From Nannocystis pusilla (GTDB taxonomy: Bacteria > Myxococcota_A > Polyangia > Nannocystales > Nannocystaceae): 64,000 nucleotides of DNA. Below the pieces are notes generated by a model. The model did no database searches. It was not told the DNA's origin and was given only the letters and a program-made list of their open reading frames with translations. Both the position numbers and the translations under genes were made by a program. This document shows, piece after piece, positions 2,105-60,200 of this stretch (position 1 is its first letter; every line of letters starts with the position of its first letter). The DNA lies in the NCBI RefSeq assembly GCF_049060185.1, contig NZ_JBMEQO010000002.1, one strand, 5' to 3'.

Positions 2105-4855
2105 ATGAGCGTCATCATTCCCGATACGGACGCGTCGGGGATCTCGGTGGACATCACGCAGTCGCTGCCTGGTGTCGCGATCTCGGTCCCTGCGATCCTG
2201 CCTCCGCGGCTCGGTCGATTCACCATCCTCGAGCGCCTCGGCGGCGGCACGGCGGTCGTCTACGCCGCTTACGACGAGCTCCTCGACCGCAAGGTCGCGA
2301 TCAAGGTCCTGCCCGACACCGGGTCGAAGGGCCAGATCCGGCTGCTGCGCGAGGCCCAGGCGATGGCGGGCGTGAGCCACCCCAATGTCATCACCGTGCT
2401 CGAGGCCGGAGTCATCAAGGGCCAGGTCTACGTCGCCATGGAGCTGATCCGCGGCGCCGCGCTGCCGGCCTGGCTGGCCGCCGGGCCGCGGACCTGGCGC
2501 GAGATCCACGACGTGTTCACCCAGGCTGCGCGAGGCCTCGCCGCCGCCCACGAGGTGGGCCTCCTGCACCGCGACTTCAAGCCCGGCAACGTCATGATCG
2601 ACGCCACCGGCCGCGCCTGCGTCCTCGACTTCGGGCTCGTGCGCGCCACCCCCGATCGCCCGGGCCTGCTCGACCTGTCCTCGGGCGCCAGCCAGAGCAT
2701 GCGGATCCGCGTCGGCGACGACGGCGAGGACATCCTCGGCACGCCGGCCTATCTCGCGCCCGAGCGCTGGCGCGGCGGCGCGGCCGAGCCGGCCTCCGAT
2801 CAATTCAGCTTCTGCGTCGCCCTCTACGAGGCCCTGTTCGGCCTGCCGCCGTTCGCCGGCAACGACATCCTCGCGCTCTCGCACGCGATCACCAACGGCC
2901 ACCTGCGGCCTCCGCCGCGCAACCACGGCGTGCCCGCGTGGCTCATCGCCGCGCTCATGCGCGGCCTCAAGACCGAGCCGCGCGACCGCTACCCGTCGAT
3001 GGAGGCGCTGCTCGGCGCGCTCGTCCTCTCGCGCGGGCGGACCTGGCGGTTCGTCGGCGCCGCCCTGGCGCTCGCCCTCACCGCCGGCGCTGCCGGCCTC
3101 GCGTTCGTGCCCGAGGCCGCCGCCGAGTCGCCGTGCGCCGACGCCGACGCCGACATCGCCCGCGTGTGGGGCCCGGCCCAGCGCAACGCCGTCGCCACCG
3201 CCTTGCGCGACGCGGCGCCCAACTACGCCGCGGTGCTGTGGCCCAGGGTCGCCGACAAGCTCGATCGCTTCGCCGCCTCGTGGGCCGAGAACCACCGCGA
3301 CACCTGCCTCGCCGAGCACCAGGGCCGCTACACCGAGGCCTTGCTCGATCGCCAGCGCCGCTGCCTCGATCGCCGGCGCGACGCCTTCGACGAGACCGTC
3401 AAGGCCCTCTCGATCGCCGACATGGACATGGCCCCGCGGGCGCTCGGCGCCGCCAGCGATCTCGTGCCGCCCTCCGCCTGCCACGAGCTCGCCTTCCTCA
3501 AGGCCGAGCCGCCCGCGCCCGACGACCCCGAGCTCGGCGAACGCGTCGCCGACCTGCGCAATCACATGGCGCGGGCCGAGGCGCTGGCCAAGCTCGGGCG
3601 GATCCACGACGCGGTCGACCAGGCCGTCGACATCGAGGCCGCCGCCGAGCAGATCGGCTACGCCCCGCTGCGCGCCGAGGTCGCCCTGCTGCGCGGGCGG
3701 CTCTCGCTCAACACCTCCGAGGAGACCGGCCAGGAGCTCGAGTGGTTGACCCGGGCCATGCGCAGCGGCATCGAGTCGCGCGGCGACGCGATCGCGGCCG
3801 AGGCCGTGGCCTCGCGGATCGTCGCCGCCAGTCGCCGGCCCGAGATGGTCGCTCGCGCCCTCGCCGACGAGCCCCTCGCCCTCGCCCTCGCCTCTCGCGG
3901 CGCCGCCCCCGAGGCCCTGCGCGGCCTCGTCCTGCACAACCTCGGCGTCGCCAACCTCGCCCAGCGCAACTCGGCCGAGGCGCGGCGCTACTTCACCGAG
4001 GCCCTCAGCGTGCGCCAGGGCGCCCTGTCGGCCGGCCACCGCGACGTCGGCTACACCCTGCTCAACCTCGCCTCCGTCACCGACCCGGGCGCCGCGCGCG
4101 ACGACCTCCTCGCGCGCGCCCTCGAGATCTTCGACGCCGAGCTCGGCGTCGTCCACCCCGCCACGATCGAGGCGCGGATCACCGCCGCTCAGCTGGCCGA
4201 GCCGGGCGAGGCCTGGTCGATCCTCCAGGCCGGCTGCGTCGCGCTCGAGCGGTTCTTGCCCGACGACCTCGTGCGCCGCACGCGGTGCCTGTTCCACCTC
4301 GGCCGCGCCGCCACCGAGATCGGCGACGACGACGACGCCGCCTCGGTCTTCCGCGCCGCCGCCGAGCTGTCGGAGCTGTCCGGCACGCGCCTGTTCGGGC
4401 CCGAGGCGACCCTGCTCGCCGGCTACCGCGGCCTCGCCGGTCCGGTCGACGACAACACCGCTGTCGAGCACCTCCAGGCCACCCTCGCGCGCATGCCGGA
4501 CGCCACCTGGTCGAGCGAGGAGATCGCCGAGCTGCGCCTGGTCCTCGGCCAGAACTTGCTCGTCCGCGGCCGGCCGCTCGAGGCCCGCGTCCCGCTGGCC
4601 GCCGCGGTCGCTGAGCTCACCGTCCTCGCCGCCGACGACCCGCACTGGGCCCCGCGCCTCGCTCGCGCCCACCGCACCCTCGCCGAGGCCCTGCTGACGG
4701 CCACGCCGCCCGCCGTGGCCGCCGCTCGCCCGCACCTCGGGGCCGCGCTCGCCTTCTACCGCAGCGCCGGCGCCAGCTTCGCCCGCCAGCTGGCCGCCAG
4801 CGAGCGCCTGCTGACCCGCGCAGGCCCGCGGACGCACCTGCCCTCACGGCCATGA
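2105..4855 (+). CDS. Ser/Thr protein kinase with a long C-terminal TPR-like or helical-repeat domain.
   Basis: Hanks kinase motifs are present: GGGTAVVYAAYD, VAIKVL, HRDFKPGNVMID, DFGLV and GTPAYLAPE. The ATG at 2105 opens MSVIIPD. G/C is used consistently at the third position across 917 aa, and the tail is rich in Ala/Leu repeats. Confidence 0.9.
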   Translation: MSVIIPDTDASGISVDITQSLPGVAISVPAILPPRLGRFTILERLGGGTAVVYAAYDELLDRKVAIKVLPDTGSKGQIRLLREAQAMAGVSHPNVITVLEAGVIKGQVYVAMELIRGAALPAWLAAGPRTWREIHDVFTQAARGLAAAHEVGLLHRDFKPGNVMIDATGRACVLDFGLVRATPDRPGLLDLSSGASQSMRIRVGDDGEDILGTPAYLAPERWRGGAAEPASDQFSFCVALYEALFGLPPFAGNDILALSHAITNGHLRPPPRNHGVPAWLIAALMRGLKTEPRDRYPSMEALLGALVLSRGRTWRFVGAALALALTAGAAGLAFVPEAAAESPCADADADIARVWGPAQRNAVATALRDAAPNYAAVLWPRVADKLDRFAASWAENHRDTCLAEHQGRYTEALLDRQRRCLDRRRDAFDETVKALSIADMDMAPRALGAASDLVPPSACHELAFLKAEPPAPDDPELGERVADLRNHMARAEALAKLGRIHDAVDQAVDIEAAAEQIGYAPLRAEVALLRGRLSLNTSEETGQELEWLTRAMRSGIESRGDAIAAEAVASRIVAASRRPEMVARALADEPLALALASRGAAPEALRGLVLHNLGVANLAQRNSAEARRYFTEALSVRQGALSAGHRDVGYTLLNLASVTDPGAARDDLLARALEIFDAELGVVHPATIEARITAAQLAEPGEAWSILQAGCVALERFLPDDLVRRTRCLFHLGRAATEIGDDDDAASVFRAAAELSELSGTRLFGPEATLLAGYRGLAGPVDDNTAVEHLQATLARMPDATWSSEEIAELRLVLGQNLLVRGRPLEARVPLAAAVAELTVLAADDPHWAPRLARAHRTLAEALLTATPPAVAAARPHLGAALAFYRSAGASFARQLAASERLLTRAGPRTHLPSRP

Positions 4856-4920
4856 CCTGAAGAACATGCCCACAGGGGCATGCTCTTCGAGCATGTCCCT
4901 GCCGACATGCTCCATGCGTC
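4851..4920. repeat. 14-bp-phased CATG-core palindromic array (5-6 units) between the convergent 3' ends of the kinase gene and the beta-helix lipoprotein gene.
   Basis: CATG cores sit at 4851, 4865, 4879, 4893 and 4906. The units are agaaCATGCCCa, ggggCATGCTCt, cgagCATGTCCc and ccgaCATGCTCc. Confidence 0.7.
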
Positions 4921-4964
4921 AGGCCGACGCGCTCGCCGTCGACCCGGCCCACTCCCGCCTGCCC

Positions 4965-4993
4965 AGACAAAGGCGCATATATGTACCTTTGTC
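4965..4993. promoter_or_regulatory. AT-rich 28-bp near-perfect palindrome GACAAAGG-cgCATATATGta-CCTTTGTC. This is the lowest-GC spot in the region.
   Basis: The inverted 8-bp arms are gacaaagg/cctttgtc, and the CATATATG core is itself palindromic. The site lies in the intergenic region between convergent genes. It repeats the GACA..TGTC arm theme of the dispersed arrays. Confidence 0.4.
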
Positions 4994-59289: not shown

Positions 59290-60107
59290 CCGACACACCC
59301 GAACAACCCGGCACTGCAGCCCCGCCCGCCGCGTCGACGCCCCGCTCGGACTCGCGGCGCAAGCGTCGCGGCACCGGCCCGTTCCTCACCGCCGAGCAGG
59401 AGATCGCGCAAGCCCAGGAGGCCGCCCGCGCGCGCAATCCGGCCCCCGCGGCGGCGCTGACGAACGAGCGACCGCTCACCCCCAAGTTCGGCCGCTACGA
59501 GCGCGCCGACTTCGAGCGCGTCGAGTCGATGCTGGGCAGCTTCGCCACCCGGCGCTTCGGTCCGGTCGTCACCCAGGTGATGAACGGCTTCTTCGGCGGC
59601 GCCACGCCGGCCGAGAAGAACAACGCCGACCTGCGCCGCGCGGCCCAGACGTTCTGCCTGTACGGCTACCGCGACCCCAAGGGCATCCGCCTGGTCGACA
59701 TGTTCACCAGCGCCGGCGTCCCGCTCGAGGGCCGCCAGCGCGCCGCCCTCGACGCCTGCCTGCAGGCGCGCCTGCTGCTGGTCGCCGTCGACGACGTGAA
59801 CCCCGGCAAGCAGCGCGTGCGCGGCAAGGACCTGCTGCGCGACGAACCCATCACCCTCACCGACAGCAACATGTCGCAGGCCCTGCGCCCGGGCGACCGC
59901 GTGCTGACCTGGTCGATCCCGTGGGGCACCAGCTGGCAGCCGATCGGCGTCGGCCAGCGCCTCGAGGCCCGCCGCGCCGCCGTCCTCGACCGCGGCGTCG
60001 AGCAGCTGTGCGACAGCCTCCGCGCGGTCAAGCGCGAGCTGCCCGACCGCCACGGCCCGAACCTGTTCTGGCTGGTCCACCGGATCGCCAACGCCCCGAT
60101 GGGCTGA
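59286..60107 (+). CDS. Hypothetical protein of 273 aa, translationally coupled (ATGA overlap) to the upstream lipoprotein gene.
   Basis: The sequence MTDTPEQPGTAAPP..FGRYERADFERVESMLGSFATRRFGPVVTQVMNGFFGG..WSIPWGTSWQPIGVGQRLE is intact and has coding-like codon bias. Confidence 0.55.
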   Translation: MTDTPEQPGTAAPPAASTPRSDSRRKRRGTGPFLTAEQEIAQAQEAARARNPAPAAALTNERPLTPKFGRYERADFERVESMLGSFATRRFGPVVTQVMNGFFGGATPAEKNNADLRRAAQTFCLYGYRDPKGIRLVDMFTSAGVPLEGRQRAALDACLQARLLLVAVDDVNPGKQRVRGKDLLRDEPITLTDSNMSQALRPGDRVLTWSIPWGTSWQPIGVGQRLEARRAAVLDRGVEQLCDSLRAVKRELPDRHGPNLFWLVHRIANAPMG

Positions 60108-60109
60108 GG

Positions 60110-60200
60110 CTGCCCCTGCGGGCATGTCCGCAGGGATATGTCTTATGAACCATGAGTGAAAGGGCATGTCCGCGAGGACATGCCCTTCGGCGCATCGAAG
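60110..60200. repeat. 14-bp-phased CATG array of six to seven units between convergent genes.
   Basis: The cores sit at 60123, 60137 (TATG), 60151, 60165, 60179 and 60192. The sequence is gggCATGTCCgcagggaTATGTCTtatgaacCATGAGTgaaagggCATGTCCgcgaggaCATGCCCttcggcgCATCgaagg. Confidence 0.7.

Follow-up and report, generated by a model that had tools for sequence, protein, structure and literature searches.

The window, a 64,000-nucleotide stretch of DNA from the myxobacterium Nannocystis that is approximately 96-97% identical to N. pusilla CP185339.1, carries a dispersed family of palindromic repeats with about 110 units in 57 clusters, where about 3 units would be expected. The catalogued loci are given below without strand; L-numbers denote the sequences used for comparison.

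268-299: two units in the gap separating minus-strand coding runs (L121 ortholog at 8172-8199)
1445-1462: single unit CCTGTCCCGAGAGACATA
4837-4923: array of 5-6 units in a convergent gap, overlapping the TGA stop (4853-4855) of a Ser/Thr kinase gene
7600-7673: array of 4-5 mixed CATG, CAGG and CCTG units just 3' of the GNAT domain, ORF 6970-7965; orthologous arrays in L121 and L122
8749-8836: six CCTG-type units (directional) between the genes for an ABC ATPase and a permease; a CTGACC unit contains the ATPase stop TGA (8779-8781)
9779-9851: array of 4-5 units filling the convergent gap from the permease stop (9783) to the HxlR stop (9857)
10342-10359: single unit CCTGTCCGAAGGGGCAGC, conserved in L121 (18136)
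13042-13087: three-unit array, co-directional, between aldo-keto reductase and NMT1-like genes; three units also in the L121 ortholog
14159-14204: three-unit array directly 3' of a TAA stop (14153-14155)
14312-14329: isolated perfect unit TCTGTCCTAAAGGACAGA
15214-15555: five spaced units (15216, 15261, 15309, 15435, 15540), three within a 45-bp repeat
16761-16806: three-unit array downstream of ECF sigma-factor domains
17365-17501: four CCTG/CATG units, loosely grouped, upstream of gene 17742-19190
19067-19154: six-unit CATG array in a convergent gap; its end is 2 nt short of the SNF2 helicase stop (19156)
20792-20823: two-unit CCTG array, flanked on both sides by minus-strand coding runs
21708-21725: single unit CCTGTCCCTTCGGACACA within a coding-like region
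22797-22836: two units 22 bp apart
23864-23951: six-unit array (84 bp) directly 3' of a PNP_UDP domain; coding signal on both flanks in the same reading frame
45454-45488: two units 17 bp apart within the HipA gene
46249-46266: single unit after the HipA gene
47198-47243: three-unit array directly 3' of an HxlR stop (47186)
48000-48017: single perfect unit CCTGTCCCCGGGGACAGC within the 568/620-aa gene, conserved in L116
48291-48330: two weak units within the 568/620-aa gene
49026-49197: old array, partly decayed, with about 12 units; located where the N-terminal part of the 568-aa protein is encoded
50192-50272: two single units within the ABC_tran-MlaE gene (linker)
51045-51104: 3-4 CCTG-type units filling the PHP/ABC gene gap, co-directional, minus strand
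52888-52919: two-unit array at the junction of PD40 and Ppx; L001 and L116 conserve it, and L117 has three units
60109-60204: array of 6-7 units filling a 101-bp convergent gap between stops at 60105-60107 (+) and 60209-60211 (-)

CATG spacing counts, shuffles and a weight matrix all indicate that this 14-bp family is real and not due to chance. Scanning the window with a symmetric 20-nt weight matrix gave 110 units above 10 bits against 3.4 expected, and when units above 9 bits were clustered the spacing was exactly 14 bp in 46 of 55 intra-cluster pairs. CATG-to-CATG distances of 14, 28 and 42 bp occurred 23, 11 and 7 times, respectively, other distances mostly 1-5 times, while triple CATG in 14-bp phase gave 10 matches versus 0.00 in dinucleotide-preserving shuffles and TG[TC]C[CT]-N4-[AG]G[AG]CA gave 28 versus 0.78 in Markov shuffles. 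An artefact of base composition, codon usage, translated peptide repeats or assembly could be suspected, as the window is of draft quality, with numerous deletions of 1-2 nt when compared with the complete genome of N. pusilla, and ORFs read through arrays in 72%-GC DNA. However, this explanation is refuted by the shuffle and other-genome controls and has practically no chance of being correct: the shuffles yield approximately 0 to 3 matches against 10 to 110 observed, 483 kb from other high-GC genomes hold 11 units and zero phased pairs, the family recurs in independent complete genomes of three species, and a peptide repeat cannot be encoded by a 14-nt period. The dispersed tandem palindromes described in the initial annotation are therefore genuine and in excess of composition; all of its loci were recovered except 28845, which is below threshold, and about 30 further loci, mostly single units, were added. 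The occasional 13-bp units that it reported may be assembly errors, given the deletions in the window.

Each module is an 18-nt palindrome, C(A/C)TGYCC-N4-GGRCA(T/G)G, whose arms are 7 bp and centre 4 nt long, and adjoining units overlap head to tail via their common self-complementary CATG ends. The strict 14-bp period arises because neighbouring units share these four bases; array-internal junctions are CATG, and array edges and single units are CCTG/GCTG...CAGG/CAGC. The repeat had been described as a decamer core followed by a 4-nt spacer, a description to which the overlapping palindromes are preferable. The exact decamer proposed, GGGCATGCCC, has zero occurrences in the window, where the variants GGACATGTCC (n=5), GGGCATGTCC (n=4) and GGACATGCCC (n=2) are found, and the proposed 20-bp palindrome CTTCGGGACATGTCCCGAAG has no exact copy there, the nearest, at 52894, having 2 mismatches. 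An isolated palindrome cited at 14303 does exist, but at 14314, and arrays of more than 12 units are approached (about 12) only if decayed units at 49028-49195 are counted, since strict runs reach 6 at most. Covariation in the window is weak and lies in the N4-centred register, with 72.2% of stem cells paired versus 69.2 ± 1.0 in shuffles (1 of 500 as high) and a covariation score of 0.188 versus 0.154 (2 of 500 as high); slid registers pair only 19-42% of stem cells, and no covariation across CATG was seen in the window units. The metagenome set reverses the pairing covariation (TG 79, TA 75, CA 50, CG 6), and therefore it is the motif and not the pairing that is conserved in that set.

Arrays are located at gene 3' ends and are rare on the promoter side. 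In the metagenome set, 44 of 103 convergent gaps (43%) contain an array, compared with 33 of 242 co-directional (14%) and 4 of 87 divergent gaps (5%); the corresponding counts are 5/16, 16/64 and 1/11 in the window and 6/17, 10/89 and 0/22 in the isolates. The frequent location between convergent genes noted in the initial annotation is borne out as an enrichment, and the arrays do lie largely outside the functional coding parts of genes, whereas the statement that they are often in 5' regions does not hold, divergent gaps being the least occupied. The space after genes is filled, often from stop codon to stop codon (9784-9856, 60108-60208). In places arrays have expanded in frame into tolerant coding regions, and single units in conserved coding regions arose without length change, so that simple insertion or slippage does not explain those units.

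The CATG-type arrays are predicted to form stable RNA folds, with z between -3.3 and -7.0 for most of the strands tested. The values were -7.0 and -6.8 for the strand pair of 9779-9851, -4.4 and -6.0 for 23864-23951, -4.4 and -3.3 for 60109-60204, and -4.3 for the + strand of 19067-19154, where the minus strand (19060-19165) reached only -1.5. CCTG-type arrays have no sense-strand fold, and in 8749-8836 the + strand RNA is unstructured (z +1.98; - strand z -2.5). The arrays could be viewed as primarily selected RNA elements: terminators, often bidirectional, that work without a factor or assist Rho, and hairpins protecting 3' ends in a 72%-GC genome without U-tract terminators. The family would then have arisen incidentally, as the same hairpin was convergently selected. 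Such a role would agree with the stable folds of both strands of CATG-type arrays, with the convergent gaps being the most occupied and carrying the longest arrays, with array starts at or a few nucleotides from stop codons, with a T-run on one unit, and with the lack of enrichment of canonical terminator-like sites (3 found versus 2.7 expected); the sole unit scored as terminator-like is 14188-14203, followed by TTTTTGTTT. Although RNA hairpins had been among the functions initially offered, and the CATG-type folds speak for them, the bias predicted by RNA-selected structure is absent, as the sense strand shows no excess of G.U-compatible over A.C mismatches (window 21 vs 23, metagenome set 64 vs 69, isolates 19 vs 52). 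The unstructured sense strand of the CCTG type, the units and arrays within coding regions, and stems of 5-7 bp, short for terminators, also count against RNA-level selection, and one shared sequence with a strict CATG overlap and whole-unit indels is not expected from independent selection. In the two closest genomes, moreover, stems (4.9% divergence) are not clearly more conserved than other non-coding DNA (6.2%). We consider this explanation rather unlikely.

Comparison of orthologous loci indicates that arrays gain and lose whole 14-nt units, as different strains and species carry arrays at the same gene junctions with differing unit numbers. The L121 ortholog of the array at the kinase 3' end has one extra unit, the gap relative to the window being exactly 14 nt; the array near 47200 has three units in the window and four in N. 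pusilla; and the array within the 568-aa gene is expanded by about 150 nt, mostly lying in an insertion common to the window and N. pusilla, with 1-2 units in L116 and L117. Of the adjacent in-phase unit pairs, 36 of 257 (1.8% expected) and 6 of 45 (2.8% expected) share a loop sequence, approximately five to eight times above expectation. Whole-unit indels and shared adjacent loops suggest that array length is set by slippage and not by a fixed architecture.

Between strains the core persists longer than the loops: the divergence between the window and L121 is 14% for CATG, 30% for the inner stem, 43% for the loop and 28% for other non-coding DNA. Part of the difference between core and loop comes from the alignment itself, in which phased repeats line up by their cores. 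Persistence of the core could point to arrays of binding sites for an abundant protein with sequence specificity for double-strand DNA, such as a dimeric nucleoid-associated protein, a gyrase/topoisomerase partner or a global regulator. Such a protein would read either the half-sites TGYCC/GGRCA or the decamer GGRCATGYCC, the phased sites permitting polymerisation between convergent genes, for example in supercoiling handling or transcription-unit insulation. E. coli BIMEs bind gyrase and IHF, and positive supercoils accumulate in convergent gaps. Also in line with a double-strand signal are the asymmetric decamer GGGCATGTCC in direct repeats together with the negative pairing covariation of the metagenome set, the lack of strand bias relative to transcription, and the coding-region single units conserved in place without length change; the unit at 50257 in the ABC_tran-MlaE linker is conserved down to L002, a relative with 82% PntB identity. 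However, about 1.7 units per kb would amount to some 20,000 per 12-Mb genome, very many for a specific factor, and the 14-bp spacing (1.33 helical turns) puts successive sites on different helix faces. The exclusion of sites from promoter gaps argues against an ordinary regulator, slippage appears to set array length, and no candidate protein was found, all of which make a binding array unlikely.

On the sequences compared, the family appears to be specific to Nannocystis. Independent loci are present in N. pusilla, N. exedens, N. punicea and Nannocystis-like metagenome contigs, with 0.8-1.8 units per kb and in-phase pairs in N. pusilla (L001, L118, L121), N. exedens (L119) and N. punicea (L120), and the same range, again with in-phase pairs, in the relatives L116, L117 and L122. 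The 14-bp phase thus persists beyond the window. There are 337 in-phase pairs in 489 kb of metagenome contigs, mostly Nannocystis-like (70-77% GC), and none in 1.36 Mb from 80 other genomes or in L002.

With slightly better than even confidence, we interpret the family as Nannocystis-specific, REP/BIME-like palindromic DNA repeats, a dispersed "hairpin minisatellite" that probably gives 3'-end hairpins. Of the three functions originally listed without distinction (protein-binding array, mobilisable REP-like element, RNA hairpins), the data favour a DNA-level repeat growing by whole-unit slippage. Arrays would grow by replication slippage or hairpin-mediated misalignment, and new sites could be seeded by a RAYT/IS200-type single-strand transposase or by point mutation and conversion; a tblastn search of 731 kb of Nannocystis-like DNA, some 5% of a single genome, with E. 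coli RayT as the query found no transposase (best E 0.14). Most copies are likely to be tolerated and not individually selected. The arrays would form local hairpin barriers, reducing read-through and shielding the mRNA upstream of them against 3' exonucleases, and, lying in 3' untranslated or intercistronic RNA with stable folds, they probably act by analogy as E. coli REPs do; REP325 is a terminator and mRNA stabiliser (bioRxiv 10.64898/2026.03.23.713779).

The initial annotation could name no matching family, and indeed the units have no match in Rfam. REP/BIME-type repeats are already known, but we found no description of the 14-bp, head-to-tail CATG-overlap architecture in the searchable literature. 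Like E. coli REP/BIME the repeats are palindromic, although the head-to-tail overlap differs, and unlike classical REPs the unit is without an unpaired GTAG or CGTC tag and is shorter at 18 nt. The REP/BIME-like character first proposed is borne out in the distribution, as REPs are found between unidirectional and convergent ORFs and also within genes (PMC3733652).

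The repeat family and its 14-bp phase, which the initial annotation had proposed from sequence alone, are real. The autocorrelation of CATG positions that it had suggested as a check gave sharp peaks in the window (71.9% G+C) at 14 bp (23 pairs), 28 bp (11) and 42 bp (7), with mostly 1-5 pairs at other distances. Triple CATG in 14-bp phase was observed 10 times against 0.00 in 100 dinucleotide-preserving shuffles, and the pattern TG[TC]C[CT]-N4-[AG]G[AG]CA matched 28 times compared with 0.78 in Markov shuffles; these controls reject a composition artefact as the source of the arrays. 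Units were scored with an iterated, strand-symmetric 20-nt weight matrix, with cut-offs of >10 bits for units and >9 bits for clusters, which gave 110 units in 64 kb where 3.4 were expected, and 57 clusters whose internal spacing is exactly 14 bp in 46 of 55 cases. Tandem Repeats Finder independently returned 14-bp arrays at 8749, 9800, 14169, 17362, 20791, 23905 and 51044, and the family amounts to about 3% of the window. CATG itself is found 232 times versus 162 expected, an excess that by our estimate is due to the arrays, and its avoidance or enrichment as a restriction or methylation site was rejected.

The matrix recovered all the loci of the initial annotation except 28845, which is sub-threshold, and added roughly thirty more, mostly single units. 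Some details of that description had to be revised: neither the decamer GGGCATGCCC nor the 20-bp palindrome quoted in it has an exact match in the window, and the isolated palindrome placed at 14303 lies at 14314. The 13-bp units that it mentioned may be sequence errors, the window being of draft quality.

Alignment of the units on their N4 centre gives the consensus C-(A/C)-T-G-Y-C-C-N4-G-G-R-C-A-(T/G)-G, an 18-nt palindrome with 7-bp arms. Within arrays the junction between neighbouring units is CATG, whereas array edges and isolated copies carry CCTG or GCTG at the left and CAGG or CAGC at the right, which explains the variants centred on CAGG or CCTG that had been described initially. Since the CATG-ended variant alone has self-complementary tips, neighbours can share 4 nt, and the strict 14-bp phase results from 18-nt units overlapping by CATG (18 - 4 = 14). 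A second array type, with CCTG at every junction, is a direct polar repeat of poor self-complementarity:

CCTG-type arrays in the window
8749-8836, CCTG-type array, (ACCTGTCCCTTCGC)n
51045-51104, CCTG-type array, (ACCTGTCCCTTCGC)n

We also investigated the distribution of the family in other genomes. An independent syntenic locus of N. pusilla (L118), N. exedens (L119) and N. punicea (L120) holds 0.8-1.0 units per kb, with a 3-4-unit array at one common convergent junction. CATG spacings of 14 occur there 3-5 times against ~0.4 at other distances; thus the phase persists outside the window; its loss there is what the initial annotation had named as fatal to its own proposal. L121, from a second N. 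pusilla strain, and L122, from an 83% relative, have densities of 1.5-1.8 units per kb, and ~1 unit per kb was obtained for two relatives with 89-90% PntB identity (L116 and L117); the relative with 82% PntB identity (L002) has a few single units, without an array. As a control we used 80 loci of distant genomes (1.36 Mb) among the PntB-search matches listed, including a Nannocystaceae MAG, Polyangiaceae MAGs and 483 kb above 66% G+C, in which there were no in-phase pairs and 0.09 units per kb. When metagenomes were scanned for two complete in-phase units, 71 stretches matched. Most of them have 70-77% G+C and the same family, and together the stretches span 489 kb, with 618 units and 337 pairs in phase. 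In viral contigs the pattern scan gave 33 single matches, at chance level, and nothing phage-related. The repeat family is genus-restricted, high-copy and palindromic.

CATG-based palindromic satellites of other kinds were seen in unrelated metagenome contigs with a lower G+C content of 54-62% (L164, L181, L183, L131, L150 and L126), as (CATGGGG/CATGCCC)n with an effective 7/14-bp period, as GCAGGGCATG-N4 arrays and as CATGTCCAAAAGGACATGTCCGAAAGGACATG. Higher-order repeats of ~70 bp, each built around one unit-like hairpin (CGACATGACCTTCGAGACAGC), separate the genes for malate synthase and isocitrate lyase in N. exedens (L119, 4747-5115) and N. punicea (L120, 4708-4993).

In order to place the arrays relative to genes, non-coding-like stretches between GC3 frame-plot coding runs were taken as gaps, classed by their flanking strands and counted as occupied when they contain an array of at least two units.

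Gaps occupied by arrays, by orientation of the flanking coding runs
Metagenome contigs: convergent 44/103 (43%); co-directional 33/242 (14%); divergent 4/87 (5%)
Window: convergent 5/16 (31%); co-directional 16/64 (25%); divergent 1/11 (9%)
Isolate loci: convergent 6/17 (35%); co-directional 10/89 (11%); divergent 0/22 (0%)

The enrichment between convergent genes noted in the initial annotation is borne out in all three sets (44/103, 5/16 and 6/17 gaps occupied), and convergent gaps also house the longest arrays. The array at 9784-9856 fills the gap from the permease stop to the HxlR stop, and that at 60108-60208 fills the gap from a stop codon at 60105-60107 to the stop of a DUF2330 protein at 60209-60211. 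Stop codons even lie within units, as the CTGACC or CATGAC variant, at 4853, 8779 and 9781. Arrays are also found inside genes. In the window and in N. pusilla an array has grown by ~150 nt within the N-terminal coding region of a protein of 568 aa (620 aa in the N. pusilla version), where L116 and L117 have 1-2 units at the same site, and the reading frame of this expansion stays open in the complete N. pusilla genome. Another array, of 84 bp (28 codons), follows a PNP_UDP domain and has coding signal in the same frame on either side. A peptide repeat as the origin of the arrays is excluded by the 14-nt period. Both HxlR-family genes of the window, 9857-10312 (minus strand) and 46842-47186 (plus strand), are directly followed by arrays (9779-9851 and 47198-47243), a pairing that is probably a coincidence because arrays are so common at 3' ends.

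Comparison of strains and species revealed arrays at the same junctions, with varying unit numbers and N4 centres. At the 3' end of a kinase gene the second N. pusilla strain has one unit more than the window, the gap being exactly 14 nt, and at 47200 there are 3 units in the window versus 4 in N. pusilla. Of 257 and 45 pairs of neighbouring in-phase units, 36 and 6 have the same N4 centre, where 1.8% and 2.8%, respectively, would be expected; sharing at 5-8 times the expectation is the mark of local tandem duplication. For the window and L121, with an overall identity of 84%, divergence is 14% at CATG, 30% in inner stems and 43% in N4 centres, compared with 28% in other non-coding DNA and 15% at codon third positions. 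The core thus outlasts the centres, although this is partly an alignment effect, as phased repeats align core-to-core; both sequences retain high-scoring phased arrays despite nearly randomised centres. In the two closest genomes stem and loop divergence (4.9% versus 6.4%) did not differ significantly, at low power, and the signal comes from the more distant strain only. Some single units within coding regions are kept in place as far as L002. Among the loci compared there is no clean pair of empty and filled sites of the kind that MITEs leave (50-500 bp, terminal inverted repeats, target-site duplication, insertion polymorphism). All Nannocystis genomes examined have arrays at the same junctions, and simple insertion fails to account for the single unit at 50194 because it arose without a length change.

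Pairing within the palindrome was then weighed against conservation of the motif. In the window 72.2% of stem cells are paired, versus 69.2 ± 1.0% with partners shuffled (a level reached by 1 of 500 shuffles), the score for covariation is 0.188 versus 0.154 (2 of 500), and slid registers give 19-42% pairing. This covariation is confined to two pairs, Y-R (UA 43 and CG 11 versus CA 10 and UG 4) and A/C-T/G, the latter mostly mirroring internal versus edge position, and in window units none was found across CATG or past the 7-bp arms. A decamer palindrome plus spacer was rejected as the unit, since in the window the covariation falls in the N4-centred register, and so was a longer 24-nt hairpin, which is without covariation outside the 7-bp arms. 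For 228 CATG-N10-CATG units on Nannocystis-like metagenome contigs, where the arrays repeat the asymmetric decamer GGGCATGTCC or its complement directly, covariation at the Y-R pair runs the opposite way (TG 79, TA 75, CA 50, CG 6), and hence it is the motif and not the pairing that is universally conserved. Mismatches that wobble pairing would allow do not favour the sense strand (21 versus 23 in the window, 64 versus 69 in the metagenome, 19 versus 52 in isolates), so an RNA element selected on the sense strand was rejected. A conserved motif and the absence of strand bias are what would be seen if the arrays were sites for an abundant protein that binds double-stranded DNA, an explanation that we regard as quite unlikely.

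Predicted RNA folds of the CATG-type arrays reach z values of -3.3 to -7.0 against shuffles on most strands tested, the minus strand of 19060-19165 being an exception (z -1.5), and consist of nested 10-11-bp hairpins with 4x4 internal loops, the hairpins extending over two decamers. For the CCTG-type array no structure is predicted on the sense strand (z +1.98). Fold stability, together with the position of the arrays, argues for terminator or stabiliser hairpins under direct selection, but the sense-strand bias is absent, the CCTG arrays are unstructured and copies lie inside genes, and on balance we consider such selection unlikely.

Several known systems were compared with the family. REPs have been defined as palindromic repeats of 20-40 bp in high copy number (Di Nocera et al. 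2013, PMC3733652); here the copy number is high, yet the palindrome of 18 nt is under that range, and the same source mentions REPs with 5-bp stems (Thauera). In the REP super-families one end of the palindrome bears an unpaired GTAG or CGTC (PMC3733652), and the flank profile of our units has no GTAG or CGTC column, only the paired neighbour arm or CCTG/CAGG. REPs are located mainly downstream of coding regions, where the adjoining ORFs are unidirectional or convergent, with some inside genes (PMC3733652), and the unit arrays follow this distribution (convergent 43/31/35%, co-directional 14/25/11%, divergent 5/9/0% in metagenome contigs, window and isolate loci). REPs may be mobilised by Y1 transposases (PMC3333891), and a REPtron is a cognate RAYT gene (TnpA_REP, a Y1/HUH transposase) flanked by repeats (PMC3733652). 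A tblastn search with E. coli RayT in 731 kb of Nannocystis-like DNA, ~5% of one genome, gave a best E value of 0.14, which is noise, and none of the 20 window proteins scanned matched Y1_Tnp. The family shares with the REP/BIME elements of E. coli and other Proteobacteria high-copy, short, imperfect palindromes in arrays of up to about a dozen units, a location downstream of genes in convergent and co-directional gaps, rarity in promoter regions, some copies inside genes, strain-variable positions and copy numbers, and RNA folding into stable hairpins (PMC3733652, PMC3333891). It differs in its 18-nt unit (7-bp arms, 4-nt centre) as opposed to 20-40 nt and in the missing unpaired GTAG/CGTC tag. 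Whereas Y and Z REPs alternate with variable short linkers in the BIME layout, the units here are symmetric and overlap by 4 nt in strict 14-bp phase, with no linker, and the CCTG-type arrays and the metagenome GGGCATGTCC arrays are direct, not alternating, repeats. Because the tag is absent and the BIME layout does not apply, we do not file the Nannocystis family as a REP/BIME member, although it appears to work like REP/BIME.

Copy number changes in whole units (the 14-nt gap versus L121, 3 versus 4 units, the ~150-nt expansion), as in VNTR/MIRU-like minisatellites, and operationally the family is therefore a dispersed minisatellite. Mycobacterial MIRUs are non-palindromic tandem units of ~40-100 bp, intergenic and often in operons, where they touch flanking stop and start codons. 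Like MIRU-VNTR loci, the family has head-to-tail units at many intergenic loci, with the same frequent place in operons and contact with stop and start codons, and these loci differ between strains by whole units, but it is a palindrome of 14-nt period and occurs also in thousands of single copies. The cyanobacterial SDR elements and the HIP1 octamer GCGATCGC are very short, lineage-specific, hyper-abundant palindromic motifs of coding and non-coding DNA, for which we know of no transposase and no established reason for the maintenance of the sequence. The Nannocystis unit is likewise extremely short, lineage-specific, hyper-abundant, palindromic and present in coding and non-coding DNA; HIP1 and SDR, unlike the arrays, are neither strictly phased and overlapping nor concentrated in convergent gaps. 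Rickettsia palindromic elements are single-copy insertions of 100-150 bp, in frame within protein-coding genes. The in-frame expansion in the 568-aa gene and the 84-bp array after the PNP_UDP domain resemble them, whereas the Nannocystis elements are arrays of 14-nt units.

The arrays are similar to intrinsic and bidirectional terminators in being G+C-rich hairpins right after stop codons, notably between convergent genes, but they have short stems, are tandem, occur also inside genes and reuse one shared sequence genome-wide. A T-run is found on one unit only (14188-14203), the single unit to qualify as stem-loop plus T/U tract in 20 kb with ~60 units, and terminator-like sites overall number 3 versus 2.7 expected; canonical terminators were thus rejected. 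CRISPR, taken as 24-48 bp repeats alternating with unique, similarly sized spacers at no more than a few loci, was rejected in view of contiguous 14-bp units, 4 variable nt between arms and 57 loci in 64 kb. The sequence GGACATGTCC equals a p53 half-site and matched p53 papers only, a resemblance that is coincidental. With Rfam 15 at the gathering threshold the window returned nothing but a tRNA:

34481-34551, minus strand, tRNA gene, sole Rfam gathering-level match in the window

At E<=1, Rfam gave no match on any array in 4500-24500. The searchable part of the literature on Nannocystis or myxobacterial repeats holds no description of the repeat family, and Myxococcota are unmentioned in the REP survey of >80 species.

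The copies overlap by CATG, vary by whole units, gather at the 3' ends of genes and avoid promoter gaps. We lean towards a REP/BIME-like repeat that grows by slippage and acts through hairpins at 3' ends. Slippage or hairpin misalignment would lengthen and shorten the arrays, which would be tolerated only where harmless, reaching up to, and sometimes into, coding ends; transcribed in 3'-UTR or intercistronic RNA, they may act as local hairpin barriers. Such behaviour would match that documented for E. coli REP/BIME (PMC3733652, PMC3333891, bioRxiv 10.64898/2026.03.23.713779), where REP325 attenuates read-through and also stabilises upstream mRNA (bioRxiv 10.64898/2026.03.23.713779). The REP-like, protein-binding and selected-hairpin readings are not mutually exclusive. 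Improbable in our judgement is that the family is the smallest self-propagating repeat yet (14-18 nt), with its CATG ends as the recognition or priming site of a putative dedicated activity and its motif selected as punctuation between convergent transcription units. A single-strand nuclease of HUH/Y1 type or an enzyme that nicks at CATG could supply that activity; each new copy would be joined to the end of one already present, forcing the 14-bp phase, and the genus would keep the motif for supercoil relief or for collision or termination control. If true, this would be a mechanism separate from REP-RAYT.

Returning to the REP-like reading, the role of the arrays is likely the ordinary one for such repeats, while their overlapping, strictly phased architecture is unusual for a short palindromic extragenic repeat and the family is apparently undescribed. 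Nannocystis genomes (11-13 Mb) would hold on the order of 10^4 copies and could offer a natural system for the origin, spread and upkeep of short palindromic repeats and for expression tuning at 3' ends, which a recent study showed for E. coli REPs. Gene prediction will go wrong at the arrays, since ORFs cross them and start and stop codons fall within units; assembly errors and differences between strains probably concentrate in the arrays, which could serve as typing markers.

The gene content of the window is ordinary chromosomal, with kinases, an ABC transporter, PntAB, H+-PPase, M16 peptidases, SNF2, HxlR and sigma factors. PntB (43107-44519) is 99% identical to that of N. pusilla, and 33.1-54.5 kb has 96-97% nucleotide identity to N. 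pusilla CP185339.1 (L001). Against this complete genome, 33127-47258 shows ~34 small indels in 14 kb (for example at 34519, 36645, 38632, 41557, 42245 and 42600-42726), 27 of the 34 being deletions of 1-2 nt (once 3 and once 6 nt) in the window, some in conserved genes and beside the tRNA. In view of these many small deletions the window looks unpolished and of draft quality. PntA, H+-PPase (29800-32015, three ORFs), the 568/620-aa gene and the DUF2330 C-terminus have split ORFs, and many window ORFs appear to be split artificially.

The DUF2330 protein seems to end (60209-60331, minus strand) in a GC-rich hydrophobic tail and an arginine run (...GLLALAGLGLLAGRRRRR before the stop), which we take to be reminiscent of myxobacterial C-terminal sorting signals; the tail and the upstream ORF are in different frames, for which an assembly deletion is the probable cause. 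Shortly after the array at 7600-7673, positions 7778-7934 contain 4.2 copies of a 37-bp tandem repeat with 96% identity (CCGTCCGGCCCTGTCGCCGATCGCCGTCACCACGCGG), which has no relation to the 14-bp family. The long ORF 14447-17347, with no Pfam match and a weak coding signal, contains 2.5 copies of a 45-bp repeat (15205-15322) with one unit per copy. After the array at 47198-47243, the segment 47258-47596 is not homologous to its N. pusilla counterpart (L001, 14158-14481), so that a replacement breakpoint abuts the array, and a 55-bp repeat of 2.6 copies (47486-47626) is located at this segment. In the window and in N. pusilla, HTH_3, the toxin-antitoxin-like HipA, a small ORF and HxlR (44650-47190) lie between pntB and the 568-aa gene, a block that is probably an insertion because it is absent from L116 and L117. 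In L117, and in that one relative only, a CAP12-PCTIR/TIR-domain gene (645-1592), a candidate defence gene, adjoins moaC.
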